Positions 7,727-28,607 are shown, counted from the first letter of the stretch. The stretch is DNA of 64,000 bases from Candidatus Omnitrophota bacterium (GCA_030632085.1 DAOVJY010000001.1:142289-206288); one strand, 5' to 3'. The notes: generated by a model from the sequence alone, not told the origin. Numbers and translations: made by a program.

Positions 7727-7763
7727 GAACCTGCCTCCGCCTTTCCTTATAAATATGAAATTT

Positions 7764-7782: not shown

Positions 7783-7784
7783 AA

Positions 7785-8201: not shown

Positions 8202-8296
8202 CTTACTCTCCTTTTGTAATAAATTATAGATTATTACACTACCTAGCGCTTAATCTACAATTTTCTTTCTTTAAGGAACTTTTATATTACACATAG

Positions 8297-8325
8297 ATTA
8301 TACATAAAACACATTAAATAATCAA
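8297..8325 (-). promoter_or_regulatory. Promoter TTGATT-17-TATAAT for the RRM gene 7785..8201
   Basis: Reverse complement reads caagcTTGATTatttaatgtgttttatgTATAAT, followed by an AAAGTTCCTTAAAG leader. Confidence 0.65.
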
Positions 8326-8484
8326 GCTTGGACACTTGGTTCTATGTCTTCCGCCTCGAAGATGATACAACCGATATTCTACCACTTCCGAGGTAATATA
8401 TACACGGTTTATTAAGATAATTGAAGTGAGTCAGAAAATTAGCATGCGACCAAAGGGAGTGCTAAGCAAAGTGAATATAAAATT

Positions 8485-8503
8485 AAAGGTGTCTGTCCCC
8501 TTT
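8485..8503 (+). repeat. Family-A hairpin copy
   Basis: 13 nt from the stop of gene 8517..9035. Confidence 0.9.
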
Positions 8504-8516
8504 AAAAATTAGAACT

Positions 8517-9035
8517 TTATTCCTTACTCACTCCAGTAATTTTAAGTTTAAGTAAATATTGCCTAATGTTTGCCGTTATATCAGGAATAACTATATCTGT
8601 ATATAGGATGTTATCTTGATATGATTCACTAATGATAACTTGATATTGCTTTCCAAACAACTTTTCGATTAGTACAATTAGCTCTCCTTTAACCAAATTT
8701 TCTATTTTTTTTTGCTCATCCATATTGCTGGAAGAAAAGGTTTCAGTAAAATCCATGGGATTAAATTCACCCGTTTCTTGCATCTCTAATGCTTTGCGCA
8801 TCATAGAGTCCTCTAATTCTTTATAGGTTTGATAGCTGTCTTTAAGCTCCTTGTTTTCCGGTTTAGAAAAAACCAGTTCTAATAATAAAGGTTCAACTTC
8901 TCTAAATTGTATTTTAGCAACACTGATTGAGGTTTTTTCGGCAAAACAAAAATTTTGAACACAGAGGATTAATAAAATTACAAGTACAATTTTTTTACTC
9001 ATTTTTCTCCTTTTTTCATTTTCTTTATCTAACAA
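8517..9035 (-). CDS. Secreted hypothetical protein
   Basis: A signal peptide is present (MSKKIVLVILLILCVQNFCFA). There is no family match. The likely start is the internal Met. Confidence 0.45.
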   Translation of the reverse strand: MLDKENEKRRKMSKKIVLVILLILCVQNFCFAEKTSISVAKIQFREVEPLLLELVFSKPENKELKDSYQTYKELEDSMMRKALEMQETGEFNPMDFTETFSSSNMDEQKKIENLVKGELIVLIEKLFGKQYQVIISESYQDNILYTDIVIPDITANIRQYLLKLKITGVSKE

Positions 9036-9079
9036 TTAATATACGAACTTCATTTTTTAAGGAATCTTATATTGCATTT

Positions 9080-9109
9080 ATTATAACATAAAGCATACTA
9101 AATACTCAA
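9080..9109 (-). promoter_or_regulatory. Promoter TTGAGT-18-TATAAT plus conserved leader for gene 8517..9035
   Basis: The reverse-complement leader AGATTCCTTAAAAAATGAAGTTCGTATATTAATTGTTAGATAAAG aligns with the leader at 22160-22227. Confidence 0.65.
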
Positions 9110-9260
9110 GCTTAGTGCTTCTATGTCTTTCGCCGTAAAATTCATTTATTGTTCGAGGTTTCGCCTCGAACACTATAAGATTAAAGCACGCATTACCAAA
9201 AGAAGAGCATATTGTTACACCTACGAGGTGTAATATATTTAATATCATATTTGTCAAATA

Positions 9261-9279
9261 AAAGGTGTCTGTCCCCTTT
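9261..9279 (+). repeat. Family-A hairpin copy
   Basis: 36 nt from the relE-like stop. Confidence 0.9.
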
Positions 9280-9315
9280 TATCCATTGCTATAAGCTCTT
9301 GCTATCAATATTAAC

Positions 9316-9762
9316 CTAAGGATATTTATCTTTAATCCATTTTTGAATCTTGGGGTCATTCGGGTTATGTGAAACATAGCCCTTTTTAACGAATTTCTTA
9401 AACTCTTCATAGGGATCGTTTTTGCTGCCGGACTTACGTATATGGCCTTCATCATTCAAATATAAATAAATTATAATCAAAGGGTTGCTGGAAAAACAGA
9501 AAATAATGCGATAACGCTGTAATCCGCTCTTATAACGCCTGTATTTTTTCAGATCTCTCTTAAGGCGATATTCAGGAAGATTCGGATCTTGGGGGATGAT
9601 ATTTTGATCGGCATTGCGGATACGCGCGGCAAGTTTTACAATCTCATGCTGTTTATAATCTTTATTTGATAATTTTGCTTTTAAAGCTTTGACTTGCTCT
9701 TTTAAACCTGAAACGCGAAGATAATAGTGATGATGATATTTCAAAACATATTTATTCACCAT
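9316..9762 (-). CDS. RelE/ParE-superfamily toxin
   Basis: YRLKRDL...YRIIFCF...IIIYLYLNDEGHIRK matches the RelE/ParE YRIIY...IGHRK pattern. It overlaps the upstream antitoxin gene by 11 nt. Confidence 0.6.
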   Translation of the reverse strand: MVNKYVLKYHHHYYLRVSGLKEQVKALKAKLSNKDYKQHEIVKLAARIRNADQNIIPQDPNLPEYRLKRDLKKYRRYKSGLQRYRIIFCFSSNPLIIIYLYLNDEGHIRKSGSKNDPYEEFKKFVKKGYVSHNPNDPKIQKWIKDKYP

Positions 9763-10051
9763 CTACTTCAATACCCTCAAGAAGCTTGTCCCACTCCTTA
9801 TCCCAGACTTCTTTAACATTTCTTAACTTATCTGGATGCTTTAAGGCATCTTTTATCAAAGCCTCTACAAATGAATGAAAAAGAGGGTCAGCTTCAATAG
9901 TATCAAGATTATTTTGGGCGCGGATACTAATCTTGTCCTGCGCACTTTCTATAATCACTTCTTTAGTACCGGTGTGTCTCACAAAATCCATAGGTATATC
10001 TACGGCATAACTGCCGCCATGCTTAAACAATTTTTTAACTGCAGTTCTCAT
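9752..10051 (-). CDS. AbrB/MazE-fold antitoxin partner of the RelE-like toxin
   Basis: 99 aa with a GGSYAVDIPMDFV swapped-hairpin-like N-terminus. The antitoxin-first operon layout is preceded by a TTGACA-17-TATACT promoter on the minus strand (about 10090-10125). Confidence 0.5.
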   Translation of the reverse strand: MRTAVKKLFKHGGSYAVDIPMDFVRHTGTKEVIIESAQDKISIRAQNNLDTIEADPLFHSFVEALIKDALKHPDKLRNVKEVWDKEWDKLLEGIEVDGE

Positions 10052-10210
10052 TTCTCATCTCCTATATTATCATTTCTATAAGTATTACTTTGATCTATTG
10101 CATAAGTATATACTAATGTGTATATATTGTCAAGATAATAGCATATATTCACCATCTTTATCTGAGAGGATTCTTCTGGTAAGATTTGATAGAATTTTCA
10201 TTAATAATTA

Positions 10211-10229
10211 AAAGGTGTCTGTCCCCTTT
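10211..10229 (+). repeat. Family-A hairpin copy
   Basis: 11 nt from the PEP-CTERM gene stop. Confidence 0.9.
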
Positions 10230-10240
10230 TAATTAAAAAC

Positions 10241-11239
10241 CTATTCTTTTAACTTTTTCCTCAATCCAAAAACTCCAAACAACCCCGCGCCTAAGAGTAA
10301 AATGGTCGAGGGTTCAGGGACAGCATAAACGTCTATCCTGTTTATAAAATAATCGCTTTCTTCCATTAACATATCCAAATCATTTATATATCGAGGAAGA
10401 AAAGTATCATACGTATACCAACTGGTCATTGGAGGCACGGCAGATACCGCAGAATGAACACCAAATAGCGTCAACTCCCCGCCCCATAATACAAAGGTTG
10501 GACTGCTAGAATCTCCTCCCACGGCCCCGGCATTATCAGGATAGCCGGGATCTGGACCTAAACGATTGTAGTTTTCCTCGCTACGAAAAAGGGAAGAAGC
10601 ATATAATGTCTGTTCATAGGCATTAGCAGGGCAGTGATAACCAAAACTACCTATTTCATTATTGCGTCCTACCTGCGCGCCTTGGCCATAAAGATATATA
10701 TTACTTTCAACTTGCGCACCGAGAGAGGTTCCCCACCAGTTTACATCATAATAAGGAGAACTTGGATCATCGGTATCCAGAATAGAATAGTGGGAAATCT
10801 TGTCAGCCTCAGACACAGTTTCACTAAGCCAACCAAGGGCAAGATCACAGGGATGAGAACCGAATTCATTAACATTGTCAATAACGCGGGAAGAATATTT
10901 ATTAACTGTATAAGATTTCAGTTGCCCTTCTCTGTTTATGAAGTTAATTGTGTTTCCAGTGGGCACTTTCCAGTGATTGGCGCAAACAAAATGTTGCGGC
11001 GATACCATTGTCACGCTGCGCGATGACATGCCCATGTCCCACCCTACACCCGACCAGTCATATTGTGAAGCAAAAAAATCAGGGTTGTTTACAGGATTAC
11101 CGGCATATGTTCCCGGATTAAACCTGTCATGCCGAGCGGGATTATACCCGTTTATTTGCAGGGCTTGAGCGTTTGCGGAATAACCAATACCCAGAAATAG
11201 TAAGAAAATCGCTGTCCATTTAGGTAAATTCATATACAT
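10241..11239 (-). CDS. PEP-CTERM sorting-signal secreted protein
   Basis: An N-terminal signal peptide is present. The C-terminus VPEPSTILLLGAGLFGVFGLRKKLKE is a VPEP motif followed by a TM helix and a basic tail. Confidence 0.75.
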   Translation of the reverse strand: MYMNLPKWTAIFLLFLGIGYSANAQALQINGYNPARHDRFNPGTYAGNPVNNPDFFASQYDWSGVGWDMGMSSRSVTMVSPQHFVCANHWKVPTGNTINFINREGQLKSYTVNKYSSRVIDNVNEFGSHPCDLALGWLSETVSEADKISHYSILDTDDPSSPYYDVNWWGTSLGAQVESNIYLYGQGAQVGRNNEIGSFGYHCPANAYEQTLYASSLFRSEENYNRLGPDPGYPDNAGAVGGDSSSPTFVLWGGELTLFGVHSAVSAVPPMTSWYTYDTFLPRYINDLDMLMEESDYFINRIDVYAVPEPSTILLLGAGLFGVFGLRKKLKE

Positions 11240-11426
11240 AACTTTCTCCAGTATTAAAAAAACACAAAGAAGTAAACAAAACTATATCAATTATAACAGA
11301 AAGATACAGGTTATCAAGTGGAGAAATTTTTCTTATTTAGGGAATATATTGCTGTATGCTATATAAGCTATTGAAGAAATTTAGGAAATTAGTAGCGTGA
11401 TTGAATGTGTCAATTAAGGGGTACTT

Positions 11427-11448
11427 AAGGGAGGTGACCCCTTTTTAA
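11427..11448 (+). repeat. Family-B hairpin AAGGGAGGTGACCCCTTTTTAA
   Basis: 17 nt from the RRM2 stop. Family-B copies at 13139-13160, 24396-24415 and 25136-25158 read AAGGGAGTTGACCCCTTTTT. Confidence 0.85.
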
Positions 11449-11465
11449 TTTCCTTTTTAATTTTG

Positions 11466-11714
11466 CTATGCCTTTTTGTCTTCAGCTTTTTTAACACGGA
11501 TTTTATTGCTGGCAACTTTCTTATTGTTCAAGCTTTTTATCGCAAATTTGGCTTCTTCTGGTTTCAGCATTTCAACAAAACCAAAACCCTTGGATCCACC
11601 GGTGGATTTATCTAACACCAAATCACAAGATTGTACGGCGCCATATTCTTCAAAGAGAACTTTTAATTCTTCTTCGGTAGTACTACGAGCAAGATTAAGA
11701 ATTATTAATTTCAT
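11466..11714 (-). CDS. RRM-domain RNA-binding protein (short, no Gly tail)
   Basis: LIILNLARS (RNP2) and KGFGFVEM (RNP1) motifs are present. It is a paralog of the gene at 7785..8201. Confidence 0.8.
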   Translation of the reverse strand: MKLIILNLARSTTEEELKVLFEEYGAVQSCDLVLDKSTGGSKGFGFVEMLKPEEAKFAIKSLNNKKVASNKIRVKKAEDKKA

Positions 11715-11757
11715 AAGTTAATACCCCTTTAAGTATCTAGTGATTCCACAGTATCGT

Positions 11758-11777
11758 AAAAAGGGGTCTGTCCCCTT
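11758..11777 (+). repeat. Family-A hairpin, perfect-stem variant
   Basis: It lies between the stop of 11834..12148 and the RRM2 start. Confidence 0.85.
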
Positions 11778-11833
11778 ATTCGAGTGGAAACCCTTCATTA
11801 TTGATTTGAGTTTTAACAGTTACTATTATGGTG

Positions 11834-12148
11834 TCAATATTCATTTGCTTCAGTATATGCTGCGTTTATGCCCTCTTTATAATATTGAACGATTTCACTA
11901 TTCAAATCTGCCTTAGTTTGAGTTGTCAAAGCACAATGTAAATCTGACCATATAGTATAAAGATATCCGGCAGATATTCTTAAATTTGACCACCCTTCAT
12001 TGTAATATCCTTTGTCAATATAAGAACTATTTTGAAAGTATTTCTTCCTGAAACTTGCTAATTTTCGGTTCCAACTATGAGACCATTCCAACCAGTCTTT
12101 TTCGTACATTACAAAATTATTTTCTTTGGTACTGTACTTATGAATCAA
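11834..12148 (-). CDS. Hypothetical protein (W/Y-rich), TTG start
   Basis: ORF-track ORF. Manual extension (my base indexing was not exact) suggests the frame stays open about 230 nt further upstream without an ATG. Confidence 0.35.
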   Translation of the reverse strand: MIHKYSTKENNFVMYEKDWLEWSHSWNRKLASFRKKYFQNSSYIDKGYYNEGWSNLRISAGYLYTIWSDLHCALTTQTKADLNSEIVQYYKEGINAAYTEANEY

Positions 12149-12339
12149 ATCATTATAAAAAAATTCTAGTTCATTAATTGCAACAAAAAGTTCCTTTTTC
12201 TCTGGGTCATGTTTTTTAATGTTTTCTTCTAGATTTTTAACGTAGTTTTTACTGGGAAAGATAAAAGTATTGGAATCTGCTTCTATTGTATTAAACTGGT
12301 AATTTCTGAAATCAATTTGTTTAGTATAAGAATCTATTT

Positions 12340-12999
12340 TTATATTTTCTCCATATTTTCCAATTTTTTCATAGATGTTTTTTCCTCATTTGTCATTTTG
12401 TAATTTTTAATCACAAATTTTTTGTCAAAATACCATTGACTACCAGTGTACAAATGTAGTTGATATATACCTTGAGGAAGAAATTTATTATCACGGGTTC
12501 GCATTTCAATAAAACCTTTTAATCGACCAGCTTCTACTTTAATTTTATTAGTATCTGTTGCTATATATTTATTGGTTGGTTTCAAGTTAGCCTCTTGTAC
12601 ATTAATAAAAAACTCTAAACCATTTGGTAGATCTGTTTCAATAAGAAATTCTATTTTGTCAAAGCTTGTTTGCTCTACATTGACAAAATTTAACATAGTG
12701 AAAGGTTTTTTGCATTGTTTTTCTTGTTTTTTAACATTGTCTATTTTGTAATCAATTGTCTTTACTTTTTTTGTGGCTACAGAAGGTGGTAAATTGGCTG
12801 AATAAACAATAATACTTACAAAAGTAGTGACTATTGTAGATAAAAAGCAAACTTTAAAAACTCGTCCACGAGTCCGATGTTTCTTATTGCCCCACCACAA
12901 AACAAGTTTAGGACTTAGCATTCCTAAAATGAATGCGAAAAATAAAAAAATATATACATGCACCGTATAGTTGGCAATTGTATATCTTATATCTTCCAT
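12340..12999 (-). CDS. Membrane-anchored hypothetical protein
   Basis: Two N-terminal TM helices precede a soluble domain. No family was recognised. Confidence 0.4.
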   Translation of the reverse strand: MEDIRYTIANYTVHVYIFLFFAFILGMLSPKLVLWWGNKKHRTRGRVFKVCFLSTIVTTFVSIIVYSANLPPSVATKKVKTIDYKIDNVKKQEKQCKKPFTMLNFVNVEQTSFDKIEFLIETDLPNGLEFFINVQEANLKPTNKYIATDTNKIKVEAGRLKGFIEMRTRDNKFLPQGIYQLHLYTGSQWYFDKKFVIKNYKMTNEEKTSMKKLENMEKI

Positions 13000-13138
13000 T
13001 TTAACCCTCCATTTACTATGTCATAAAAACGAAATCACCAGTCGAAAAGCGCAGCTTTTTAGTCAGTTGGATTAGTTTGTTAGGATTTTTCTGTTTCTTC
13101 TACTTTTAATATTTCTTCGTTTTTTTTAGGGATCTATT

Positions 13139-13188
13139 AAGGGAGTTGACCCCTTTTTAATTTTAGAATTAAAGGGGTCTGTCCCCTT
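13139..13188 (+). repeat. Tandem family-B plus family-A hairpins followed by (CCTTAT)n
   Basis: B at 13139-13160, A at 13171-13188, then CGTCCCCTTATCCTTATCCTTATCC. Confidence 0.85.
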
Positions 13189-13231
13189 ATCGTCCCCTTA
13201 TCCTTATCCTTATCCATTCTTATAATTACAC

Positions 13232-13699
13232 TTAGAAATTCGTCGTTTTACTTAATTTATTAATTAATTTTTCTGAATTTATTACTTTGAATCTTTGTCC
13301 CAATGTGTTTTCAAACCAAAAATTTACATGATCGGATTCATTTCCTTCCGGATCAATAATATGTAAATCTTCCAAATAGACAGAGGTTTCATATTTTTCA
13401 TGTTCACCCAATCTGACCCCTTTTCCCTCTTTACCTATATGCGTTCCACAGTAACCACCTTCGCTCAAATTTCCACCAAACATAGTCAAGATTACCGGTC
13501 TCCTACCGCAATTCACAATTTTAATAGCTATATGAGCACGATCATAACTAGAATTATAAGGGTAAAATTTAGCATGTGTTTTTAAATGGGCCCTGTCACG
13601 AAATCCAAAATAACCCGATATCGCTATGCTTGTAATAGAAATTATTAGTGCAGCTATTGAAACATAATCAGATATCTGCATATTTTTTTCTCCTAACAT
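13232..13699 (-). CDS. Hypothetical protein with N-terminal TM anchor
   Basis: 155 aa. The RBS leader TTAGGAGAAAAAAATATG is shared with other cassette genes. Confidence 0.4.
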   Translation of the reverse strand: MLGEKNMQISDYVSIAALIISITSIAISGYFGFRDRAHLKTHAKFYPYNSSYDRAHIAIKIVNCGRRPVILTMFGGNLSEGGYCGTHIGKEGKGVRLGEHEKYETSVYLEDLHIIDPEGNESDHVNFWFENTLGQRFKVINSEKLINKLSKTTNF

Positions 13700-13844
13700 T
13701 CATGTATACCTGCCATTAGCCAAGCTTGATAGAACGCAGAAAAAGGGCAGGTGTAGTGCATTGTTAAATGTTTTTTAAATTTATTTGTTAATTGAAATGC
13801 TGAAAAATTAAAATCAGTTTTTTTCTTTTGAGGCACCCCTTCTT

Positions 13845-14315
13845 TTATCTCTTTTTACTAGGCTGAACTATCGTATTATAATCTTTTTCATCTATAGGAA
13901 TGATAGTCTTATTCTTAAATGCCATCCCAACATTGGGAGCAGATCTAACAAAATCCAAATTATCTCTTAAATTCTTTGTCCAAAAAACTGGAGGGTCCCA
14001 AATAGATTCAATCTTGAAGTCAATCTCAAATGGCCGATATTTATTATCACCTCTTGGCGCTCTTGTAGGTTCATGGGGTTCTCTTGTAATAATCGCCTCC
14101 CCAGAGAAATACTTCACTTTTTTGCTTTTATCGCTAATATAAAATAATATTTTATCTCCACTTCTTATCTTATTAATATGTGAATCAGTGCCAAGCTGCC
14201 AACTTTGATCTTTTTGTAGCTGTTTAAAACTACTTTCAGCATTATCAGCAATGTGTGGCAGAATCCAATATCTATTAGAATAGCCGTTCATAATCCACCT
14301 CCGCTTAATTTTCAT
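13845..14315 (-). CDS. Hypothetical protein, possibly PUA-like (EVE/ASCH-type) fold
   Basis: The RYWIL...W motif near the N-terminus is weakly similar. This is a low-confidence assignment. Confidence 0.3.
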   Translation of the reverse strand: MKIKRRWIMNGYSNRYWILPHIADNAESSFKQLQKDQSWQLGTDSHINKIRSGDKILFYISDKSKKVKYFSGEAIITREPHEPTRAPRGDNKYRPFEIDFKIESIWDPPVFWTKNLRDNLDFVRSAPNVGMAFKNKTIIPIDEKDYNTIVQPSKKR

Positions 14316-14364
14316 TATTTATCTAACGATTGAGCTCACCTGCCGCCGAACGAAGTGAGGGAAC

Positions 14365-14383
14365 AAAAACGCCGCGCGTTTTT
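14365..14383. terminator. Palindromic hairpin AAAAACGCCGCGCGTTTTT, a bidirectional terminator candidate
   Basis: Immediately 3' of the serine-protease gene. It is embedded in a CACCTGC...GCAGGTG outer inverted repeat. Confidence 0.5.
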
Positions 14384-14419
14384 GCGGTCAGGTGCAGCGT
14401 TTGGTTGAGCAAAACTTCT

Positions 14420-15313
14420 TTATTTTGTATGTGCCATATCTATTGTCTCCGCAATATAGAAAGCCGGAAGAATTGCTGCGAATTTTCCTCCAGTTGGATC
14501 ATTAAAAGTTCCATGCACTATTCCCACGCAATTAAAAGCCCCTTGTCCAGAAGACATAACCCCAATTTTTACACTTGAAAGTTTAAATACGGGAGCTCCA
14601 CTAAATCCAGCAACGCTTGGGTCATCCAAAATAAAGAATGAAGCTTCAGTATTATTATCAAATCTAGAATGTCTGAATAAAGCGCTAGCAGGGTGTGCTA
14701 CTTTCACTATTGGAGAGAATTTACCTTTGACACCCAATTCAAGAGGAAAACCAACTGTAGTCAAAAAGATATCTAAATTAGGAGCTGAATTCTCAATTGC
14801 AAGTTGGTCATATGAAACGGCACGTATTGCTGCTCTAAAATTCTCGGGAGGTGAAATCGGTAATACAGCAATATCAGCTTCATTATGCAATATCCATTTT
14901 GGTGCTTGCATACCAGCAAGTTCTGATAGATTGTAGGTAAGTGGTATACCATTAGCTCCATATACCGTTGCCTTAGAATCAAAAGGTATTCCATTGGAAA
15001 CATGACTTGCCGTTACAAGATACAAATTCGGCCCTTTGGACACAAAAAAACCTGACCCTGATGTAATTAAGTTTAGTGGCTCAGGATTTGTCTTGGTTTT
15101 TTTTATCCAGACTTCCACCTCTTCTCCATTAATTGTTGTCTTCTTTACTCCTTGATGTCCCTGAAGAAACACCACTGCAGGAAAAACATCGTGAGCGGTT
15201 TGAGACAAAACTTCCGTCGGGGCTGAAAGAAGACAGATTAGTATCAACATCATCCATAATGAATATCTTCCAACCATTTTAATCCTCCTGATCATCATAT
15301 TTGTGTCCAACAA
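14420..15313 (-). CDS. Secreted trypsin-like (S1/S1B-type) serine protease
   Basis: Signal peptide present. GSGFFV...LVTASHV contains the His motif and GFSGAPVF is the GxSGxP Ser motif. Confidence 0.7.
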   Translation of the reverse strand: MLDTNMMIRRIKMVGRYSLWMMLILICLLSAPTEVLSQTAHDVFPAVVFLQGHQGVKKTTINGEEVEVWIKKTKTNPEPLNLITSGSGFFVSKGPNLYLVTASHVSNGIPFDSKATVYGANGIPLTYNLSELAGMQAPKWILHNEADIAVLPISPPENFRAAIRAVSYDQLAIENSAPNLDIFLTTVGFPLELGVKGKFSPIVKVAHPASALFRHSRFDNNTEASFFILDDPSVAGFSGAPVFKLSSVKIGVMSSGQGAFNCVGIVHGTFNDPTGGKFAAILPAFYIAETIDMAHTK

Positions 15314-15461
15314 TTAATATATGGAATAGGTATTTTCTGGATATTTAATATCATACACATTTATATTACACCATCTGTTTAAATTTACAAGTTCATTTTT
15401 TTGCTTATATTCCGCATTTTATCCATAATATAAGGATATACGAAGTTCACAAATTAATCTA

Positions 15462-20689: not shown

Positions 20690-21097
20690 TTATAGAATGA
20701 TTTCTATAGCGTGATATGGACAGATGTCAACGCAGAGCCCGCAGGCAATGCATTTACTCTTATCAAAGGTAACGGTCATCTTCTCTCTATTGACGCTAAA
20801 CGCTTTGGTAGGACAGATTCCAACACATGCCGTGCAGTGAATGCACTTCTTCTTATCCCATTTAATATCACTGGTTAACGATTGAGTATTAGCACCTATC
20901 TCATGTAAATACTTAAGGCCTTTCTCAAGGTCTTCTTTTTTACCTGTAAGCTCAACCACTAAAAGGCCTTCTTCGTTAGGCATTACTCTGGCCTTCATGA
21001 TGTTGACTATCAGGTTATAATCCTTTACCAGGTGATATGTTATGGGTTTTTCAACTAATTGATGCGGAAAAGTTATAACTACTCTTTTCTTGACCAT
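20690..21097 (-). CDS. NIL-domain / 2x[4Fe-4S] ferredoxin-domain protein
   Basis: [12 protein letters not shown] and [12 protein letters not shown] clusters follow a NIL-like N-terminal domain. Confidence 0.65.
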
Positions 21098-21233
21098 ATT
21101 TTCTCCTTAAAATTACGAGTTTATTATACACAGATTAGGAATTATTGGCAAGCTTTTTTAGAGAAAATAGTTGGATTGCGGCTAGGGCGCCTGAGCACCG
21201 CGTACCACTTCGTAGGTGGAAATAGATTTTAGG

Positions 21234-21262
21234 TTGAATATTCAGCATATCTTATGTATAAT
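21234..21262 (+). promoter_or_regulatory. Near-consensus sigma70-type promoter TTGAAT-17-TATAAT (TG-extended), upstream of mntA/hepT
   Basis: TTGAATATTCAGCATATCTTATGTATAAT. The same module appears at 22132-22160 (plus) and as reverse-complement copies upstream of minus-strand genes. Confidence 0.7.
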
Positions 21263-21351
21263 ATATATAGTTTAAAAAAGCTTTAAAAGAAAGCTTAGTT
21301 ACTAATTGGCAGATGGAAAAAAGATAAAATTTCAGAAAGTGTTCTAATTAT

Positions 21352-21621
21352 ATGATTACTGAATCTGATAAAAAAACAATTGAGGAAATATCTAAGCGAT
21401 ATCACGTAAAGCGTGTGATGATATTTGGGTCAAGCTTATCTTCATCCGAGGAAAGCCGCGATATTGATATTGCCGTGGAAGGAATTCCTTCGAAGGATTT
21501 CTATCGTTATTATGGAGATCTTATATTCGCTCTGTCAAAACCAGTGGATATTGTTGACCTTTCAGGTACATCAAAATTTTCAAAACTAATTAGGCAGGAG
21601 GGTACATTCCTCTATGGCTGA
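21352..21621 (+). CDS. mntA: MntA-type minimal nucleotidyltransferase antitoxin (HepT/MntA type VII TA)
   Basis: GS...SRDIDIAV nucleotidyltransferase motif is present. It is followed by a HEPN gene with an 8-nt overlap. Confidence 0.75.
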
Positions 21622-22029
21622 TTATAAAATACGTATTGAAGCTGAATATGAATCTATTGAAAAAACTATTTCTTCTCTTCCCGAAATACCTTTATCGCAA
21701 CTTTCAGAGCTAGAACTTGCCGGAGTAGCAGCCTTGCTCCATAATTTTATAATGGTATCGAAAATGTTCTAAAACAGGTATTTCAGAAATCAGGGTTCCA
21801 AATACCTCAAGGGGCATCCTGGCATAGAGATTTACTTCTTGAAGCTGTAGATAAAAAGATTATTTCTACCTTGCTTATGGATAATTTAAAACGTTTTTTG
21901 GCTTTCCGGCATTTTTTTGGACACGCGTATGCTTTAGATCTTTTTCCAGAGAGAATGGAACCTCTCGTTTCAGATTCCTCGAATGTATTCAAACAGTTTA
22001 AATCTGAAGTAAATAAAGCAATAGACTAG
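21614..22029 (+). pseudogene. hepT: HepT (HEPN) toxin interrupted by a -1 frameshift in a T-tract (~21746-21749)
   Basis: Frame 1 gives [45 protein letters not shown] then a stop. Frame 2 continues [15 protein letters not shown]...[12 protein letters not shown] with the R-x4-HxY HEPN motif. Inserting one T into TTTT restores [13 protein letters not shown]. Confidence 0.65.
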
Positions 22030-22042
22030 CAAACTATAAATA

Positions 22043-22061
22043 AAAGGTGTCTGTCCCCTTT
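22043..22061 (+). repeat. Family-A hairpin copy, 13 nt after the plus-strand hepT stop
   Basis: Same plus-strand orientation as copies following minus-strand genes. Confidence 0.9.
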
Positions 22062-22131
22062 AAACCCTTTAAAAGAGTAAATCACCTTCATTTGGTATAT
22101 ATTCAGGCTTACTTAAATCAAACGCATAAGT

Positions 22132-22160
22132 TTGAATATTCAGCGTATTTTATGTATAAT
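22132..22160 (+). promoter_or_regulatory. Promoter TTGAAT-17-TATAAT plus conserved leader to the GTG at 22228
   Basis: The leader ...AAAGTTCCTTAAAAAACGAAGTTTGTATATTTATTGTTAGGAGAAAAAAG is shared with the minus-strand copies. Confidence 0.7.
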
Positions 22161-22227
22161 ATATGTATACCGTTAAAGTTCCTTAAAAAACGAAGTTTGT
22201 ATATTTATTGTTAGGAGAAAAAAGAGA

Positions 22228-22494
22228 GTGACTAAAAAACTACAGATGGTATTAAGCAGATTGTTATTGGTTTGCGCTTTGTTAGTTTTGGCAGTTGTCT
22301 TCCATATGGTTCTTGTGGTTCCCAAAGCTATGTCGCAGGCAAGTGACATGGCAAGACAGCTTTCGGCTCCCGAGAAGTTCGTCTACAACCTTAGCGGCAT
22401 ATGCATCACATACTGGATTCTTATCATCCCGATTCTTGTTTTCATCGTAATTGGAGCAATAATCTGGGTGATGGTTTCGAGAATTGAAACATAG
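22228..22494 (+). CDS. Small membrane protein (GTG start)
   Basis: 88 aa with two TM helices. It lies about 65 nt downstream of a consensus promoter plus conserved leader. Confidence 0.45.
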   Translation: MTKKLQMVLSRLLLVCALLVLAVVFHMVLVVPKAMSQASDMARQLSAPEKFVYNLSGICITYWILIIPILVFIVIGAIIWVMVSRIET

Positions 22495-22721
22495 AAGAAT
22501 TCCGCTAACAACGCGCCGCAACAGATTCCGAAATGACGGAACCGCTGAGTTCAAACGCAAAATAATAAATAATATAGAAACGTACTATACGCTTAAAATC
22601 ATAGTATATATTTTTTATGTAGAATTATTGCGAGCTTTTTTAGATAAAACGTTAGATTGCGGCTAGATATCCTCCGCACCCTGTACCATTTCGTAGGTGT
22701 TATTAGAATGACAAATAAATA

Positions 22722-22740
22722 AAAGGTGTCTGTCCCCTTT
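22722..22740 (+). repeat. Family-A hairpin copy
   Basis: 72 nt from the stop of methyltransferase 22813..23517. Confidence 0.9.
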
Positions 22741-22812
22741 TCCCTTTTTCTTTTTATTGGAAAATATTTATTTTTAAGAAAAAAGGTTCTGGGTATTTTT
22801 TACCTTCATTTA

Positions 22813-23517
22813 TTATTGGAGGCGAACCCTCAACATTTCGTTTCCGCCTTTTTGAAATTCGTAAGGTACTTTCTTTATATCGACCACAAAACCGCCTTTT
22901 TCAAGTCTATCTACGACTGTCTCGAGATGTCTTGATTTTTTGGCTCCCAACTCCAACAGGGGAAATATCCTTACCTCAGATGCAACCCGACAAAGTTCTT
23001 CTATTGACTGAATATGAAAATCTTCTGAAAGGTGCTCGCTGTAGAGAAAGAGAAAGTGAGAACATAAGGCAATGTCAAATTCTCGAGCTTTGAATGGAAG
23101 TGTGGGCAAACTCGCGTCTACATAACGACCTTCCTTTAAACCTGCCACATAATCGGATAAGAAGTTGTTCATAGCAGCCATACGAACTTTGCCGAGTTCC
23201 TTAACTGATGAAATATGTCTCCACACAAACTCATTTTTGTTCTTTCTGGTCTGTTCCATGATCTCTTCATATGTTTCATCCATTCGATTTCTTATTTCAT
23301 CTGCACTGAAACGGTAAATCGGATCAACAGAAACTACATGGCCTCCACGATGTTTCATCATGCAATTAAAGCTTGCGGGACCGTCGCAACATCCCAGAAA
23401 CCGCTTCCTAAGCTCTTTTTTCGCTAAGGCAAACATTGCCAAATATTCGTTGAAGGATCGTCCCCAAGGAACTACTTTTTCCAAAGTGAAAGCCATCTTG
23501 CTTTTCCTATTTGCCAT
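22813..23517 (-). CDS. Probable class I SAM-dependent methyltransferase
   Basis: FLGCCDGPASF motif-I-like sequence and a distal FDIALCSHFLFL motif are present. Confidence 0.5.
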   Translation of the reverse strand: MANRKSKMAFTLEKVVPWGRSFNEYLAMFALAKKELRKRFLGCCDGPASFNCMMKHRGGHVVSVDPIYRFSADEIRNRMDETYEEIMEQTRKNKNEFVWRHISSVKELGKVRMAAMNNFLSDYVAGLKEGRYVDASLPTLPFKAREFDIALCSHFLFLYSEHLSEDFHIQSIEELCRVASEVRIFPLLELGAKKSRHLETVVDRLEKGGFVVDIKKVPYEFQKGGNEMLRVRLQ

Positions 23518-23584
23518 ATAACGGTTGAAATCACCTGCTTGAAAAATCGCACAGCGATTATTTCAAGTCAGGTGCATTGATTTG

Positions 23585-24139
23585 TTAGATGTCCCCTTTT
23601 AATTTTGTTTTATACAATAGACAACAATCCCATTCATCCAAAGAATAAACAGACATGCAGTCCAAGATAAATTCTTCCTTTGGAAAAGAACTGCCAAGAA
23701 GTTCTTCCATTGTTTTTTCAGAACCATCTGTGAATCTTGCAATTGAACAATGCGGAGTATAATGATGTGGGTTGTTATTAAATCTGAGATTTGTATCGAT
23801 TATCTTTTTCTGAAGCAATGAAAATGGTTTTAAAACTCTTGGCTCCAAATAGCACATTTTAGTATTTGGGAAATGAGTAATTCTTGAAAAAGCAGTTTTA
23901 ATAGGTGAAAAATTCTGTGCAATTTGTTCTAAGGTTTCGAAAACAAATGATGGTTTTTGATCATTTTTAAGTATTCCAACTCCAGATGACCCAATAATTG
24001 TTATTTCAACAGGAATTACTGTGCGTTGTTTCTCATATTGCATGCGAAGTGCCATAACCTTACTAGATACTGGTTCAGGTATATCTAAAACAACATATGT
24101 ATCGTGTTCAAATTTTTCCATATCTTTTGCACCTAACAA
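23585..24139 (-). CDS. Hypothetical protein (possible 2H-phosphoesterase-like fold, weak)
   Basis: HYTPHCSIARF is weakly H-x-T/S-x-like. The likely start is MEKFEH at about 24121. A conserved promoter/leader lies upstream. Confidence 0.3.
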   Translation of the reverse strand: MLGAKDMEKFEHDTYVVLDIPEPVSSKVMALRMQYEKQRTVIPVEITIIGSSGVGILKNDQKPSFVFETLEQIAQNFSPIKTAFSRITHFPNTKMCYLEPRVLKPFSLLQKKIIDTNLRFNNNPHHYTPHCSIARFTDGSEKTMEELLGSSFPKEEFILDCMSVYSLDEWDCCLLYKTKLKGDI

Positions 24140-24187
24140 TTAATATACGAACTTCGTTTTTTAAGGAATTTTAATATCTATGTCAAT

Positions 24188-24216
24188 ATTATACGCTGGT
24201 AGTGAGCAAGTTTCAA
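24188..24216 (-). promoter_or_regulatory. Promoter TTGAAA-17-TATAAT plus conserved leader for gene 23585..24139
   Basis: Reverse complement reads cagcTTGAAActtgctcactaccagcgTATAAT, then ...AATTCCTTAAAAAACGAAGTTCGTATATTAATTGTTAGGTGCAAAAGATATG. Confidence 0.7.
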
Positions 24217-24324
24217 GCTGAAATCCTATATTCTATTTCGTAATTTGTCTATGATATGCAGAGGATGTTGTTCGAGGTTAAACCTCGAACATACCTTGAA
24301 CATGAGTTTAGGATAAAATATTGT

Positions 24325-24341
24325 ATCACCGCGGCGGTGAT
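24325..24341. terminator. Perfect GC-rich palindrome ATCACCGCGGCGGTGAT
   Basis: Located between genes 24449..24847 and 23585..24139. Confidence 0.5.
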
Positions 24342-24395
24342 ATTAAGGGAATTAGGTTTGAGTTTGGGTTTGGGTAGTTGGAAGGTCTAAACTAA

Positions 24396-24415
24396 AAAGG
24401 GAGTTGACCCCTTTT
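24396..24415 (+). repeat. Family-B hairpin plus pyrimidine tract
   Basis: Followed by CCTTTTTACCCCTTTTCCTTTTTCTTTTCC. It is 33 nt from the stop of 24449..24847. Confidence 0.85.
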
Positions 24416-24448
24416 CCTTTTTACCCCTTTTCCTTTTTCTTTTCCTTT

Positions 24449-24847
24449 TTATGAATTTTCGACTTTCTTTTTGTTGGGTAAAAATCCAGAAATAACCCAG
24501 AGGATACCCAAGTACGAGATTACAGGAATAATTCCAAGCCCAAAAAACTCTGTCCAGCTTTGGCTCTTGCCCCGATAACTGCGATATGGTTCCAAGGCAA
24601 CAAAGAAACCCGCTACCCATAAAACTGAAATGAGCACAACGAGACGAATAGCGCCTTTGTTTCCTCTAATAATATGACCGCCAAGATAACTTAGGCCAAA
24701 TGACCCAATGGCTATGCCAGCTGTAATGGCAGAAATAAAACCCCAATCTTCAGATGAAGGTGGAGATCCAATCGCACTCACAATACCCACATAAATAATC
24801 CAGACAACTAAACAAGTGCCACAAATCCAAAAACTAATCTTTATCAT
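24449..24847 (-). CDS. Hypothetical integral membrane protein
   Basis: 132 aa with four TM helices. Confidence 0.45.
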   Translation of the reverse strand: MIKISFWICGTCLVVWIIYVGIVSAIGSPPSSEDWGFISAITAGIAIGSFGLSYLGGHIIRGNKGAIRLVVLISVLWVAGFFVALEPYRSYRGKSQSWTEFFGLGIIPVISYLGILWVISGFLPNKKKVENS

Positions 24848-24946
24848 TAAATATATCCTTTCACTTTCTCATACCAACTAATATAAGTATTTTTTAAACA
24901 ACCCCCTCATGCCGCTACCAGATGCCCTGGCTCATGTTCTCTCATA

Positions 24947-24965
24947 AAAGGTGTCTGTCCCCTTT
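24947..24965 (+). repeat. Family-A hairpin copy adjacent to oppF-3'-end remnant 1
   Basis: Directly 3' (plus coordinates) of the remnant at 24907-24943. Confidence 0.85.
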
Positions 24966-25135
24966 AAACCCCCTTTAAACCGTAATTTACCTATGATATG
25001 CAGAGTACGTTGTCCGAGGCTTAGCCTCGGACATAAAATAGCCTCGGAGGTGGTATGTGGGGATTAGGTTTGAGTTTGGATATTTGGTATGTTCTATGTA
25101 TAATGTATATCGGTGGGATTAAAGGTCTAAACTAA

Positions 25136-25158
25136 AAAGGGAGTTGACCCCTTTTTAA
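25136..25158 (+). repeat. Family-B hairpin copy
   Basis: Preceded by AGGTCTAAACTAAAA, identical to the sequence before the copy at 24396. Confidence 0.85.
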
Positions 25159-25387
25159 TAGCTTTTCATTAAAAGCATTTTGTTCGTTTGCAAGAAAATC
25201 ATGCAATTTAGTCATAGTTTATAGATAATTTTCATATAGCAACTTCTATTTATATTTATTTACAAGCAATTATAACATCATACGTAAGTATTATACACTA
25301 GCAGTAAATTAGTTTCAACCCCAAAAAATCACACCTTCGCCAGATGCTCTATCTCATGCTCTCGAAAAAAAGAAAAAAAGTATGATC

Positions 25388-25410
25388 AAAAGGTGTCTGT
25401 CCTCTTTTTT
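25388..25410 (+). repeat. Family-A variant (…GTCCTCTTTTTT), 50 nt from the dam stop
   Basis: AAAAGGTGTCTGTCCTCTTTTTT. Confidence 0.75.
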
Positions 25411-25460
25411 CACTACTACTCTTCCTATTCTTGGCATATATAGCTATTGCTATTTAATGT

Positions 25461-26369
25461 TTAGAATGTCAATAAATAGTCGCTGTCCCTATTTAAAAAT
25501 ACAGGGGATTTGAGTGCGCGCACAGAATCAACAAAATCTATTTCATCACAAAAAACAAGTAGCTCATTCCCAATCCTATTAGATGTAGATTGAGAAAGTT
25601 TATGTATAAGTTTGCTTTCTTTTGCATATAGATTCAAAATAAATTTATGTGTGTCATATGAAACTATCCATTTCTTGCGTAATTGATGGACTTTTTCAGA
25701 AAGTCTTTTATGATCTTCTTTTGAATAGAAATTCATATAGAGATTTGCACCTTGCTGACAATAAGGAGGATCTAAGTAAATAAATGTTTCTTCTTTTCTC
25801 TTATCAAGTTGTTTGATAAATTGAATGCCGTCAAAATTTGAAACTGAAATACGACTCTTAACAGTTTCCAATTTATGTATTCTATCAATTAAGTTCCGCT
25901 TATTAAATCTTGCATCAATTTTATATTTACCTCTCTGTTTAAGTCCGCCGATAGCACCACCTTTTATTATCCCAGAAATATTTGTTCTATTGAGAAAAAA
26001 AGTCGATTTGGCAAGTTCAAATAAACTAACATCATTGGCTTGTTTTTGAATATTTTTATACTTTTGCCAATTGCGCATACTAACCTTAACATTTTTAATC
26101 CAATCACAAAATTCATCTGGATAATCAATTACTGTTTTCCAAAAAGCATATATAGATATATCAAGGTCGTTTATATAAATATGATTTACATAACCTTCAA
26201 ATAACAATCTAAGTGCCAATCCTGCCCCACCTGCATATGGTTCTGCATAATTTATCCCAATTAAATGGTTTTCATAAAACAATCGGGATATAAATGGAAA
26301 TATACAATTCTTCCCTCCCGGATATCTCAATGGGGAATAAAACCTAGTCATATTACTTATCCTTTTCAT
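25461..26369 (-). CDS. Dam-family N6-adenine DNA methyltransferase (D12 class)
   Basis: RYPGGK, EPYAGGAGL (motif I) and YLDPPY (motif IV) are present. Confidence 0.85.
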   Translation of the reverse strand: MKRISNMTRFYSPLRYPGGKNCIFPFISRLFYENHLIGINYAEPYAGGAGLALRLLFEGYVNHIYINDLDISIYAFWKTVIDYPDEFCDWIKNVKVSMRNWQKYKNIQKQANDVSLFELAKSTFFLNRTNISGIIKGGAIGGLKQRGKYKIDARFNKRNLIDRIHKLETVKSRISVSNFDGIQFIKQLDKRKEETFIYLDPPYCQQGANLYMNFYSKEDHKRLSEKVHQLRKKWIVSYDTHKFILNLYAKESKLIHKLSQSTSNRIGNELLVFCDEIDFVDSVRALKSPVFLNRDSDYLLTF

Positions 26370-27597
26370 GAGTAATGCTTAATATTGCTCCAATAATTAA
26401 TGATATAGCTATAGTTTGATCAAGATTAGTTGATGATTCATAAGAATGCGCACCTGTTTGAAGCAATTGAACAATGCTTTTTTTTGTAACATTTTGATTA
26501 GCTAGTGTAGTTTTAGCATCTATATTAAGTGCTTTTTTCGCATCGTTAAAATATTTAATCAAATACTTGCCAGTCACCATCCTTTTGTCCTTAGCTGCAG
26601 TTTCACATAATAAGCGTAAAGACATTCTGATTATAGCTGGAAACATTTGTGATAAGCGCTTTTTTTCAGTAATATAAAATTCATACAAATCTACTATATC
26701 TCTATAAAAATTACTAGTATTTCCTGGATTCAAATAAAGATGACCTCCAAAAAGATCAGTTTTTTTATATGTTCTCTTTGTGCGCCTTTTATCTTTTATT
26801 ATACTAGTTAATTTCTTAAATTTTATTTTAGACAGATGAAATTTATTTTTTTTATTTTTATCAATTGATGCCTGGTTTGATGGCATCAATTTTTCGACAA
26901 TTTTCCCTCTATTTTTTCTTGTTGTTATTATCTTTTCAGCAATTTTTCTTGAAACATCAGAAAGAATAGCATGCGCTTTCTTATTACTGTGTTTGCTATA
27001 TAGTTTTCCATCTCTAAATTGAAATCCCATATTTTTTAATATGTCTTCTCTAAATACCTCTTCCTTAACAAAGCGCTGATTCAAATGCGGGTTTAAACTA
27101 ATAATACCTGTATTTTCATCCAATATAAGAAATATGCTTTTCTTTTTATTCATAAATTTGTGCACGAAAATATCTCTCTCAAGTGATTGCCAAGAACCAG
27201 TATCACTATGTTTTCGATAGATATTCTTTATAGCTATGCTCTCTGAGCATACATTACAAGGTATTTTTTCTGGAAATTCAGGAATTTTAACTTTCGATTT
27301 TGTTGGATCAATAGCTAAGCCGTGCTTGATTTTCCCTAGTATAATTCTTCTATTACCATCATATACAATGGGTCTTTTATCATGATATACCACAGTGGGA
27401 ATTTCACTAAAATCATAATAACTCCCCATCTCTTTTGCCAATTTTGCTAATGACCATTTTCCAAGAGGGTCTTGAAATGCCTTGTTTACAATGGCCTGAT
27501 CCACTGCATCTTTATTAATGGGGTCTCTGGGGTTTTCAGTCCACAAAACTAAATCTTTAATATTTATATATTCAATTTTCTGACTCATGATTAGCAT
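26353..27597 (-). CDS. ParB/Srx-like (DUF262/DGQQR-like) N-terminal domain protein, partner of the Dam methyltransferase
   Basis: The N-terminus INIKDLVLWTENPRD...PIVYDGNRRII resembles the ParB-like/DGQ(H/Q)R motif. The C-terminal ~250 aa is lysine-rich and unassigned. It overlaps the methyltransferase gene by 17 nt. Confidence 0.5.
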   Translation of the reverse strand: MLIMSQKIEYINIKDLVLWTENPRDPINKDAVDQAIVNKAFQDPLGKWSLAKLAKEMGSYYDFSEIPTVVYHDKRPIVYDGNRRIILGKIKHGLAIDPTKSKVKIPEFPEKIPCNVCSESIAIKNIYRKHSDTGSWQSLERDIFVHKFMNKKKSIFLILDENTGIISLNPHLNQRFVKEEVFREDILKNMGFQFRDGKLYSKHSNKKAHAILSDVSRKIAEKIITTRKNRGKIVEKLMPSNQASIDKNKKNKFHLSKIKFKKLTSIIKDKRRTKRTYKKTDLFGGHLYLNPGNTSNFYRDIVDLYEFYITEKKRLSQMFPAIIRMSLRLLCETAAKDKRMVTGKYLIKYFNDAKKALNIDAKTTLANQNVTKKSIVQLLQTGAHSYESSTNLDQTIAISLIIGAILSITHEKDK

Positions 27598-27713
27598 ACC
27601 TCATTTTTTTACTTCATATTATATGTAACATTATGATAGAACTGAAGACGAACAATGCATTAATTAACATTATATATCACTTATAAATTTGATTCAATAT
27701 AACTTTTACCATC

Positions 27714-28607
27714 TCACACCTTCGCCAGATGACCATCCCCATGCTCTCTTAGAGGGATATCATCATCTGGAGGGGTATATTCAAACTTAGTGATATCAAT
27801 CTTAAGCTTCCTGGTTTCAGGCTCAGGAGCTAATCCTGCCTGAAAGAGGATTTTGGTATAGGGGTGGAGCGGATTATTGTATATTTCTTTGGCGTCTGCT
27901 ATTTCAACTATTTTACCTTGATACATAACAGCAACTCTATCACAGAAATATTCAACTAAGGGTAAGTCGTGACTTATAAATAAATAACTAAGGTTTAATT
28001 CTTTTTGTAATTGTTTAAGTAAGTTTAATATCTGGGCTCTAATTGACATATCAAGTGATGAAACCGCCTCATCACAAACAATAAACTCCGGCTCCACCGA
28101 TAATGCCCTGGCAATGGCTACTCTCTGCCTCTGGCCTCCTGAGAACTGATGAGGGTATTTATTTTTATCAGCATAAACTAAACCTACCAACTCTAATAAC
28201 TCTCTTAATCTTTTACCTTCACCTTGACTATCATATAGCTTATGTATTCTAATGCCCTCGAGTAAAATATCTTTAATAGACATCCGGGGATTAAGGGAAT
28301 TGAAAGGGTCCTGAAAGATTATCTGAGAGCTTCTTCTTACCTTTCTGATGTCTCCCCTATCCCGACTAAAAACATCTATACCTTTAATTAAAACTTCACC
28401 CTTATCAGGTTTTAATAAATTTAAAATCAGCCTTCCGCAAGTAGTCTTACCGCTTCCGGACTCACCAACTAACCCGAGACTACTTCCCTCTTTAATTTCA
28501 AAGTCCACATTATCAACGGCTCTGACTTCTGTCTTTTTGTATCCAAAAAGACCTTTAGAGATACTAAATATTTTAGTTAAGTTTTTTACTTCAACTATTT
28601 TTTGCAT
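27714..28607 (-). CDS. oppF: Oligopeptide/dipeptide ABC transporter ATP-binding protein
   Basis: Walker A GESGSGKTT, ABC signature LSGGQRQRV and an Opp C-terminal extension are present. Confidence 0.85.
   Translation of the reverse strand: MQKIVEVKNLTKIFSISKGLFGYKKTEVRAVDNVDFEIKEGSSLGLVGESGSGKTTCGRLILNLLKPDKGEVLIKGIDVFSRDRGDIRKVRRSSQIIFQDPFNSLNPRMSIKDILLEGIRIHKLYDSQGEGKRLRELLELVGLVYADKNKYPHQFSGGQRQRVAIARALSVEPEFIVCDEAVSSLDMSIRAQILNLLKQLQKELNLSYLFISHDLPLVEYFCDRVAVMYQGKIVEIADAKEIYNNPLHPYTKILFQAGLAPEPETRKLKIDITKFEYTPPDDDIPLREHGDGHLAKV

Follow-up and report, generated by a model that had tools for sequence, protein, structure and literature searches.

A covarying palindrome in intergenic DNA of a Candidatus Omnitrophota bacterium is very probably a REP-type repeat linked to Y1 transposases

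Which process keeps a short hairpin paired while both of its arms change in sequence? The question is raised by a 64,000-nucleotide stretch of DNA from a Candidatus Omnitrophota bacterium (GCA_030632085.1, DAOVJY010000001.1:142289-206288; hereafter the window, with positions counted from its first letter), in which two intergenic units of about 180 bp share the same blocks in sequence and position as first described, each with a hairpin that carries paired substitutions. The original prediction was that this hairpin could be a structured noncoding RNA or riboregulator, or else a recombination site. We found copies of the hairpin at the ends of genes for Y1 HUH transposases, indicating a repeat of the repetitive extragenic palindromic (REP) type rather than a gene-specific RNA switch, and we consider it very probable that the hairpin is the REP-type repeat of a system resembling REPtrons or TIRtrons.

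Searching the window for the 23-nt palindrome TGTYCGAGG-N5-CCTCGRACA with up to three mismatches gave three matches, against 0.01 expected from shuffled sequences (Table 1). The arms of the hairpin are TGTTCGAGG-N5-CCTCGAACA, and the full stem, TGTYCGAGGY...RCCTCGRACA, has 10 bp in units 1 and 2, which is longer than was first noted; the predicted T:A to C:G changes between the two units were confirmed as two double substitutions, at stem positions 4 and 10, that keep the pairing. The third copy, which had also been pointed out, has a T.G pair at stem position 10, and its flanks can be aligned with the flanks of both units, indicating that this hairpin is homologous to the other two and not a coincidence. 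Folded as single-stranded DNA, the three hairpins reach -9.5 to -11.8 kcal/mol with z-scores of -6 to -7. All three copies are intergenic and singlets. Of a fourth copy a single arm is left, and as read from the sequence its remainder was deleted between short direct repeats.

The hairpin is not confined to the window. With the bare hairpin pattern, in which the Y and R positions were left free, at least 120 metagenome contigs were found (numbered with an L below), many with two to four copies, where our own rough estimate for a collection assumed to hold about 600 Gb is 10-20 chance matches. Two to four copies each were often found in contigs of 29-50% GC; those above about 54% GC resemble the chance background because the match there falls inside open reading frames (ORFs). 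The contigs L157, L164, L171, L186, L143 and L218/L219 share the flanking blocks of the window and hairpin A together with the palindrome; their source organisms are related. Scans of viral contigs with the hairpin, the T2 motif and ATTAGGTTTGAGTTTGG (both described below) gave unrelated chance matches only, mostly in coding sequence.

At the free pair 4-20, the 149 distinct sites among the matches listed comprised 107 with T:A, 34 with C:G, 6 with T.G and 2 with C.A. Mixed sites thus numbered 8, compared with about 57 expected under independence (Fisher p = 5e-25, a value that overstates the evidence and is indicative only, as the sites of a family are phylogenetically non-independent). Variants with T:A and with C:G coexist in the window and in L185, L204 and L226, indicating that the pairing pattern is not a lineage preference. 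Compensated double changes at pairs 3-21, 4-20 and 5-19 were also seen in sites outside the scan pattern, for example TGATGGAGG...CCTCCATCA, and for the two loop-closing positions, which are just a Y and an R, covariation is weak (p = 0.03). The proposal that compensatory change keeps the stem paired is therefore borne out by about 150 sites in more than 100 metagenome contigs, which have T:A or C:G almost always; instead of three isolated copies there are many, and the covariation persists among them. In the transcribed orientation T.G (13 sites) was not favoured over C.A (18), and without an excess of G.U over C.A the pairing constraint does not have the strand asymmetry that an RNA-only element would give. 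An uptake-signal-like element was also considered and rejected, isolated half-sites being at chance level (43 observed versus 36 expected).

The association with transposases was established by a motif filter followed by a hidden Markov model search of six-frame translations. The contigs L140, L145/L237, L149, L189, L205, L226, L204, L230 and L231 carry genes for proteins of 230-251 aa that have an HUH motif (MPNHFHL) and a tyrosine motif (Y[IV]HLNP); alignment shows that the proteins conserve NH[FLY]H and Y[IV]H[LT]N[PA]. They match Pfam Y1_Tnp with 27-36 bits (cut-off 23), and their best NCBIfam match is the REP-associated tyrosine transposase (NF047646) with 42-48 bits, which is below the equivalog cut-off of 80. 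A profile search of the PDB gave weak matches to ISDra2 TnpA (2xm3, E = 0.002) and E. coli TnpA-REP (4er8, E = 0.01), and a single-sequence search of the PDB with the transposase found nothing. At every locus except L189, palindromes lie 6-45 nt from the ends of the transposase gene, and in L205, L237 and L226 all hairpins on the contig are at this gene or within about 130 nt of it. Palindromes also occur in frame inside the transposase ORFs (L205:4320 and 4629; L237:2085; L140:312 and 514), where they read IVRGLASNN or NVRGETSDK, following the pattern ...VRG(xx)(S/T)xN/D..., and sit in a variable linker that precedes the HUH motif; L205 has a further one past the tyrosine motif. Genes for Y1 transposases of such kind are normally present once or twice per genome (PMC5581495), and our contigs were selected by the hairpin alone, so at least eight genes in about 0.6 Mb indicate a strong association. 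The associated transposases are only 29-50% identical to one another, and the stem sequence is constant.

The placement of the family sites was analyzed with genes called by a crude ORF caller. Most sites were intergenic, and among the matches listed the intergenic ones numbered 64 between same-direction, 7 between convergent and 3 between divergent genes. Thirty-two of the 77 oriented sites (42%) begin no more than 15 nt past the upstream stop codon, and 8 of 58 lie within 15 nt before the next start. Both loop orientations relative to the genes were found, the arrangement was inverted in 10 of 12 doublets, as in REPINs (REP doublets forming hairpins), and some sites occupy entire spacers of 40-60 nt. 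We also observed one palindrome (4333-4355) between two tRNA genes in L154:748-11088, a contig with 13 tRNA genes in 14 kb.

The enrichment within 15 nt after stop codons, the predominance of same-direction genes and the stable stem would all fit an element that acts primarily in RNA, without any transposase, as a stabiliser of mRNA 3' ends or as a non-canonical terminator or insulator, and secondary roles of this sort have been reported for classical REPs (PMC3733652). We nevertheless regard this as improbable, because none of the three window copies has a T-run on either side and the terminator scan lists T2 and hairpin A but not the palindrome, because contigs that range from 29 to 54% GC keep the exact stem, whereas a purely structural RNA could do without such conservation of sequence, because G.U is not preferred over C.A in the transcribed orientation, and because the copies cluster tightly at Y1 transposase genes. 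Such a role could coexist with a REP-type repeat as a secondary effect. The conserved 9-bp arms around a variable 5-bp centre also resemble a palindromic operator or activator site, at which a dimeric DNA-binding protein would control nearby promoters, and in the window, as in the related L157 and L186 units, the palindrome does lie at a fairly constant distance (39-51 nt) upstream of a -35 hexamer. However, the distance to the promoter is about 23 nt instead in copy 1 of L157 and in L164, and the module at the RRM gene has lost one arm yet retains its promoter-like site. Most sites are found after stop codons, in operon spacers of 40-60 nt, between tRNA genes or in frame in ORFs, and the half-sites co-vary within one genome, with 8 of 149 mixed against about 57 expected, whereas a protein reading the half-sites separately would need no covariation. 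An operator is accordingly a distinctly improbable explanation.

A REP-type repeat would account for these features in the following way. The 23-bp palindrome would fold in single-stranded DNA into a stem-loop of 9-10 bp, the type of structure that, by analogy with IS200/IS605 TnpA and E. coli TnpA-REP, a Y1 HUH tyrosine transposase of the RAYT or TIRYT type could bind and cut. Its copies are dispersed in intergenic DNA, with a preference for positions right after stop codons. Either only copies with pairing arms would remain substrates or one arm would be copied from the other, and complementary paired substitutions would result. By the same analogy we infer that such a transposase acts on the copies of the window and, from the shared repeat, that the source genome presumably encodes one. 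The predicted recombination site thus holds in a broad sense, as a single-stranded hairpin of the type on which Y1 HUH transposases act, but not in the sense of an integron attC site. A secondary role in RNA, in which the hairpin would protect mRNA 3' ends or insulate transcription units or cassettes, may possibly be added to this.

In addition to the non-independence of the family sites and the NCBIfam scores below the cut-off, several points weigh against a REP-type repeat. A six-frame hmmsearch found no Y1 transposase gene in the 64-kb window, so the link of its source genome to a transposase is made through identity of the repeat sequence, and the metagenome contigs carry no taxonomic label. 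The window holds only three singlet copies, each inside one kind of larger module, with which they could have spread passively; its duplication probably took them along. Arm-to-arm (quasipalindrome) correction during replication could yield paired changes without selection. Finally, the unpaired GT[AG]G (or CGTC) foot tag of classical REPs is missing, and the flanks are T|TGT...ACA|A and are themselves paired. REP-like families without a tag have nevertheless been described (PMC3733652), and transposase subclasses 2.6 and 3 are accompanied by atypical REPs that have no GT[AG]G (PMC6006769).

REPs or REPINs together with a RAYT (TnpA-REP) are known as REPtrons from E. coli and Pseudomonas (PMC3116915, PMC3733652, PMC6006769), and REPtrons and TIRtrons, REP dimers, REPs after coding regions and in-frame REPs in tnpA have all been published (PMC3733652, PMC6006769). 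The family described here resembles the REP/REPIN-RAYT systems in being a short palindrome with many dispersed, mostly extragenic copies, which occur in either orientation, tend to follow coding regions where the neighbouring genes are co-directional or convergent, and partly form inverted doublets. Its copies likewise flank a low-copy Y1 HUH transposase gene and are occasionally in frame, even in the transposase gene itself, as has been reported for subclass 2.4 (PMC6006769, PMC3733652). It differs from REPs, besides the tag, in its near-perfect palindromic stem without bulges, in the direct rather than inverted orientation of the loops of the copies flanking the transposase gene, in the pairing of one stem sequence with transposases that are 29-50% identical, and in that the window has no transposase gene. 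With the subterminal hairpins of IS200/IS605 it has in common the Y1 HUH fold of the transposase and, by analogy, a single-stranded DNA hairpin as substrate; unlike them it is a free-standing 23-bp palindrome spread over the genome, not a pair of left and right ends that differ from each other, and tnpB is absent.

The associated proteins share NH[YF]H, FQ, Y[IV]HLNP, a length of about 238 aa and a WSS tail with the TnpA-Y1 subclass 2.1 of TIRtrons (Bertels group 1; Table 1 in PMC6006769), to which, as TIRYT-like proteins, we assign them provisionally by inspection of motifs rather than by phylogeny. This subclass has been reported without nearby REP-like sequences and flanked by inverted repeats, and some families of these terminal inverted repeats (TIRs) are self-complementary, moderately abundant and dimeric (PMC3733652, PMC6006769, PMC5581495). 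The hairpin is self-complementary like some TIR families, but unlike TIRs it does not contain GGGGWSAS, a motif found in the T1 repeat of the window (GGGGACAG). As a tentative proposal, which we hold to be somewhat doubtful as a whole, this could be an undescribed REP family of a subclass-2.1 (group 1, TIRYT-like) Y1 transposase in uncultivated bacteria of groundwater, sediment and Antarctic lakes, with a stem that stays near-constant while the transposases diverge to 29-50%, an extra arm that would be the footprint of cutting or copying, and REPs that would serve as junctions for swapping terminator and promoter modules. The constancy of the stem despite the divergence of the transposases and the extra direct copy of an arm are unusual. 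If the subclass assignment is true, Y1 transposases that were thought to have no REPs can have them. A search of the literature found no paper linking Omnitrophota with REPs, and the arm sequences only in unrelated oligonucleotides; the present family adds a clearly defined pair of REP and transposase from poorly studied uncultivated lineages.

The extra arm is a direct copy of at least 8 of the 9 bases of the adjacent REP arm and accompanies 12% of singlets, compared with 0.2% in shuffled-arm controls. It is also present in L145, L146, L159, L182, L245 and L257 and on the outer sides of the L237 locus. In both units of the window this third arm, which in unit 2 has the base specific to that unit, could be the alternative pairing partner in a cis-regulatory structured RNA, a riboregulator or attenuator of the downstream genes, with a stem that covaries as expected. 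However, the extra arm belongs to a tandem duplication, variable in length (8-17 nt), in which flank bases that are not conserved are copied as well, and no more than about 12% of sites have one. The hairpin is found upstream of the promoter sites predicted here and not in the leader, genes closely homologous to the downstream gene (86% and 80% identity) lack it, its neighbours are unrelated genes and both of its orientations occur, and it matches no Rfam family. We therefore abandoned the structured RNA or riboregulator of these genes, which is now very hard to credit. In the window Rfam gave no match at gathering scores and only chance-level matches in the unit region, and in 15 hairpin-bearing loci it matched tRNAs only. 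Covariation in a short perfect palindrome is typical of REP-type DNA repeats and is not evidence for a regulatory RNA.

Table 1. Coordinates of the palindromes, units and other repeats in the window, and distances of palindromes to transposase genes in metagenome contigs
Feature	Position	Strand	Remarks
Probable REP-type palindrome, unit 1	24269-24291		TGTTCGAGGTTAAACCTCGAACA; 10-bp stem, 3-nt loop
Probable REP-type palindrome, unit 2	25011-25033		TGTCCGAGGCTTAGCCTCGGACA; C:G replaces T:A at stem pairs 4 and 10
Probable REP-type palindrome, copy 3	9150-9172		TGTTCGAGGTTTCGCCTCGAACA; within a more diverged copy of the promoter-upstream module
Remnant of fourth copy, single arm	8352-8362		CGCCTCGAAGA; in the homologous module upstream of RRM gene 7785-8201
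Extra near-copy of adjacent REP arm, unit 1	24294-24302		CCTTGAACA; 8 of 9 bases
Extra copy of adjacent REP arm, unit 2	25040-25048		AGCCTCGGA; has the unit-2-specific G
Unit 1, mosaic intergenic module	24235-24418	-	Extends into promoter-like site 24216-24188 and leader of gene 23585-24122
Unit 2, second copy of mosaic module	24983-25158	-	Promoter side truncated by T1 hairpin 24947-24966
Hairpin A	24324-24342		TATCACCGCGGCGGTGATA; terminator-like on minus strand; also adjoins the REP in L186, L218 and L219
T2 hairpin, gene-proximal end of unit 1	24395-24415		AAAAGGGAGTTGACCCCTTTT; weak bidirectional terminator-like site
T2 hairpin, gene-proximal end of unit 2	25135-25155		From repeat and terminator scans
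Sigma-70-like promoter site in unit 2	25077-25104	+	Homologous to 21234-21262 and 22132-22160
Sigma-70-like promoter site TTGAAA-17-TATAAT	24188-24216	-	51 nt downstream of unit-1 REP; followed by repeated leader cassette 24134-24170
T1 repeat AAAGGTGTCTGTCCCCTTT	7764, 8485, 9261, 10211, 22043, 22722, 24947, 25389; GGGG variants 11760, 13171		Mostly at gene 3' ends
Leader cassette TTCCTTAAAAAAYGAAGTTCGTATATTAATTGTTAG	9030-9066 (-), 24134-24170 (-), 22175-22212 (+); L157:80-120; L164		Sigma-70-like promoter site upstream
Palindromes at transposase gene, L237			9 and 6 nt from gene ends (both ends)
Palindromes at transposase gene, L205			11 and 8 nt from gene ends (both ends)
Palindromes at transposase gene, L226			At start and 6 nt after stop
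Palindrome at transposase gene, L140			17 nt from gene end
Palindrome at transposase gene, L230			6 nt from gene end
Palindrome at transposase gene, L231			24 nt from gene end
Palindrome at transposase gene, L149			45 nt from gene end

The units in which the palindrome lies are composite. Read on the minus strand, which is the direction of the genes, unit 1 consists of T2, a CCAAAC-rich spacer, hairpin A, the REP, a 16-nt block and the block AAATTACG, downstream of which come the TTGAAA-17-TATAAT site and the leader of gene 23585-24122. The two units share CTATGATATGCAGAG exactly (24249-24263 and 24991-25005) and an identical 34-nt block, AAGGTCTAAACTAAAAAGGGAGTTGACCCCTTTT (24382-24415 and 25122-25155), and a 55-nt stretch around the hairpin has 84% identity between them. 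The third of the shared blocks originally described is present in both units, but unit 1 reads AATTAGGTTTGAGTTTGG, one mismatch from the version given; what both have in common is ATTAGGTTTGAGTTTGG, with the mismatch of unit 1 just before it. The T2 motif, AAGGGAG(G/T)TGACCCCTTTT, has four copies in the window (11425-11451, 13137-13163, 24395-24421 and 25135-25161), and the unit 1 counterpart of the plus-strand promoter site of unit 2 has lost its -10 hexamer. Diverged copies of the module also lie upstream of genes 8517-9035 and 7785-8201. CTATGATATGCAGAGNNNGTTGT is a 16-nt insertion private to both window units, and the scan of metagenome contigs gave no match to it. The unit is thus a mosaic of terminator-like and promoter-like pieces comparable to the bacterial interspersed mosaic elements (BIMEs) and not one functional RNA, and the module was duplicated as one piece within a gene-cassette region that holds attC sites. 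Like BIMEs, it combines a REP with several other short conserved motifs, and its partner blocks vary in related contigs; unlike in BIMEs, the partners are terminator-like hairpins and promoter or leader cassettes and not the motifs outside the palindromic units (extra-PU motifs) of E. coli. The same palindrome joins differing left and right blocks in related contigs, and these differing partners suggest that modules may be exchanged at the repeat.

Two further features of the units were noted. A 44-aa ORF across unit 1 was rejected as a candidate gene, the corresponding frame of unit 2 being stopped after 8 codons. The plus-strand promoter of unit 2 is predicted to give a transcript of only about 45 nt (25111-25157) that ends at T2 and, in antisense, covers the 3' end of a possible minus-strand ORF of 27 codons (25236-25153); the Rfam match there, to a Bacillus type I antitoxin RNA, is at chance level (E = 6).

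The window is a segment of a bacterial chromosome with about 36% GC and nearly all genes on the minus strand. Two regions (7700-15400 and 21100-27750) hold small accessory genes, including those for a YhaV toxin, RRM proteins, methyltransferases, a D12-class adenine methylase and a 2'-5' RNA ligase-like protein, with a patchwork of short repeats between them, namely T1 in 10 copies, T2 in 4 copies, a promoter-plus-leader cassette and a plus-strand promoter cassette. Run with filters off and accepting E-values up to 10, a covariance model built from seven attC sites, the structure of which is supported by covariation, located five such sites in the window: 23510-23593 (-), 22500-22569 (+), 14315-14413 (-), 13685-13772 (-) and 13017-13088 (-). 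No integrase was found among the window genes, and the attC clusters are of the CALIN type (clusters of attC sites lacking an integron integrase) in appearance. The 2'-5' RNA ligase-like gene 23585-24122 is a cassette with an attC site directly after the gene. It is shared with L135, an integron-type cassette array with RYYYAAC...GTTRRRY sites between its ORFs, and the homology of 91% between the window and L135 DNA runs from G|TTAGGT to just past the stop codon. Homologues of its 178-aa protein with 86%, 80% and 46% identity are encoded by genes in tight arrays without the unit; the leader of this gene was likewise dropped as a candidate, as the contigs of the homologues do not contain the unit.

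With real attC sites in the region and a cassette in common with an integron-like array, the unit or its hairpin might itself be an attC site that marks cassette boundaries. None of the five sites found by the covariance model under these permissive settings falls in the units or hairpins, however, and the 5' and 3' ends of the hairpin are GTT and AAC, respectively, the reverse of the R''(RYYYAAC)/R'(GTTRRRY) order of attC, which leaves this explanation with next to no probability.

Both in the window and in related metagenome contigs, the leader cassette is found in front of unrelated genes, in the manner of a promoter module that is being propagated. The 3' end of the cassette (GTTAGG) coincides with the R' core of attC. 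T1 is probably a second transposase-linked repeat family. Its exact 19-mer recurs in metagenome-assembled genomes of Omnitrophota, Firestonebacteria and Aminicenantes, often several times per contig, its opposite strand fits GGGGWSAS, the published motif of the inverted repeats that flank TIRYT transposase genes, and one copy (L093:2390-2408) lies 2 nt past the stop codon of a Y1_Tnp gene (66.5 bits). Scanning a genome collection with T1 gave mostly coincidental matches in Collinsella, with no relative of the window at the nucleotide level and no copy of the hairpin. A similarity search of the region against phages matched nothing, a tRNA search of the window found none, and look-ups of exact proteins returned the same strain only, as short Logan contigs.

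Contig L001 ends within a T1 copy and L121 in the leader cassette; the REP together with T1, T2 and the promoter and leader cassettes explains the breaks of short-read assemblies in this organism, and such repeats should be masked or annotated in metagenome-assembled genomes. Two smaller repeats were also observed. The last 35 nt (27714-27748) of the ABC-transporter ATPase gene 27714-28607 are repeated downstream at 25329-25363 and 24907-24941 with 83% and 71% identity, each just after a T1 hairpin, and the first of these repeats follows the gene pair of the methylase (25461-26369) and a 414-aa protein; this looks like the trace of successive insertions at the 3' end of the ATPase gene. A 62-nt repeat (21165-21226 and 22646-22707, 76% identity) contains a small hairpin, CACCTAC...GTA..GGTG, has GTTRRRY-like starts (GTTGGAT and GTTAGAT) and passes over into a promoter-like stretch, also shared, that lies upstream of the NIL/ferredoxin gene 20690-21097.

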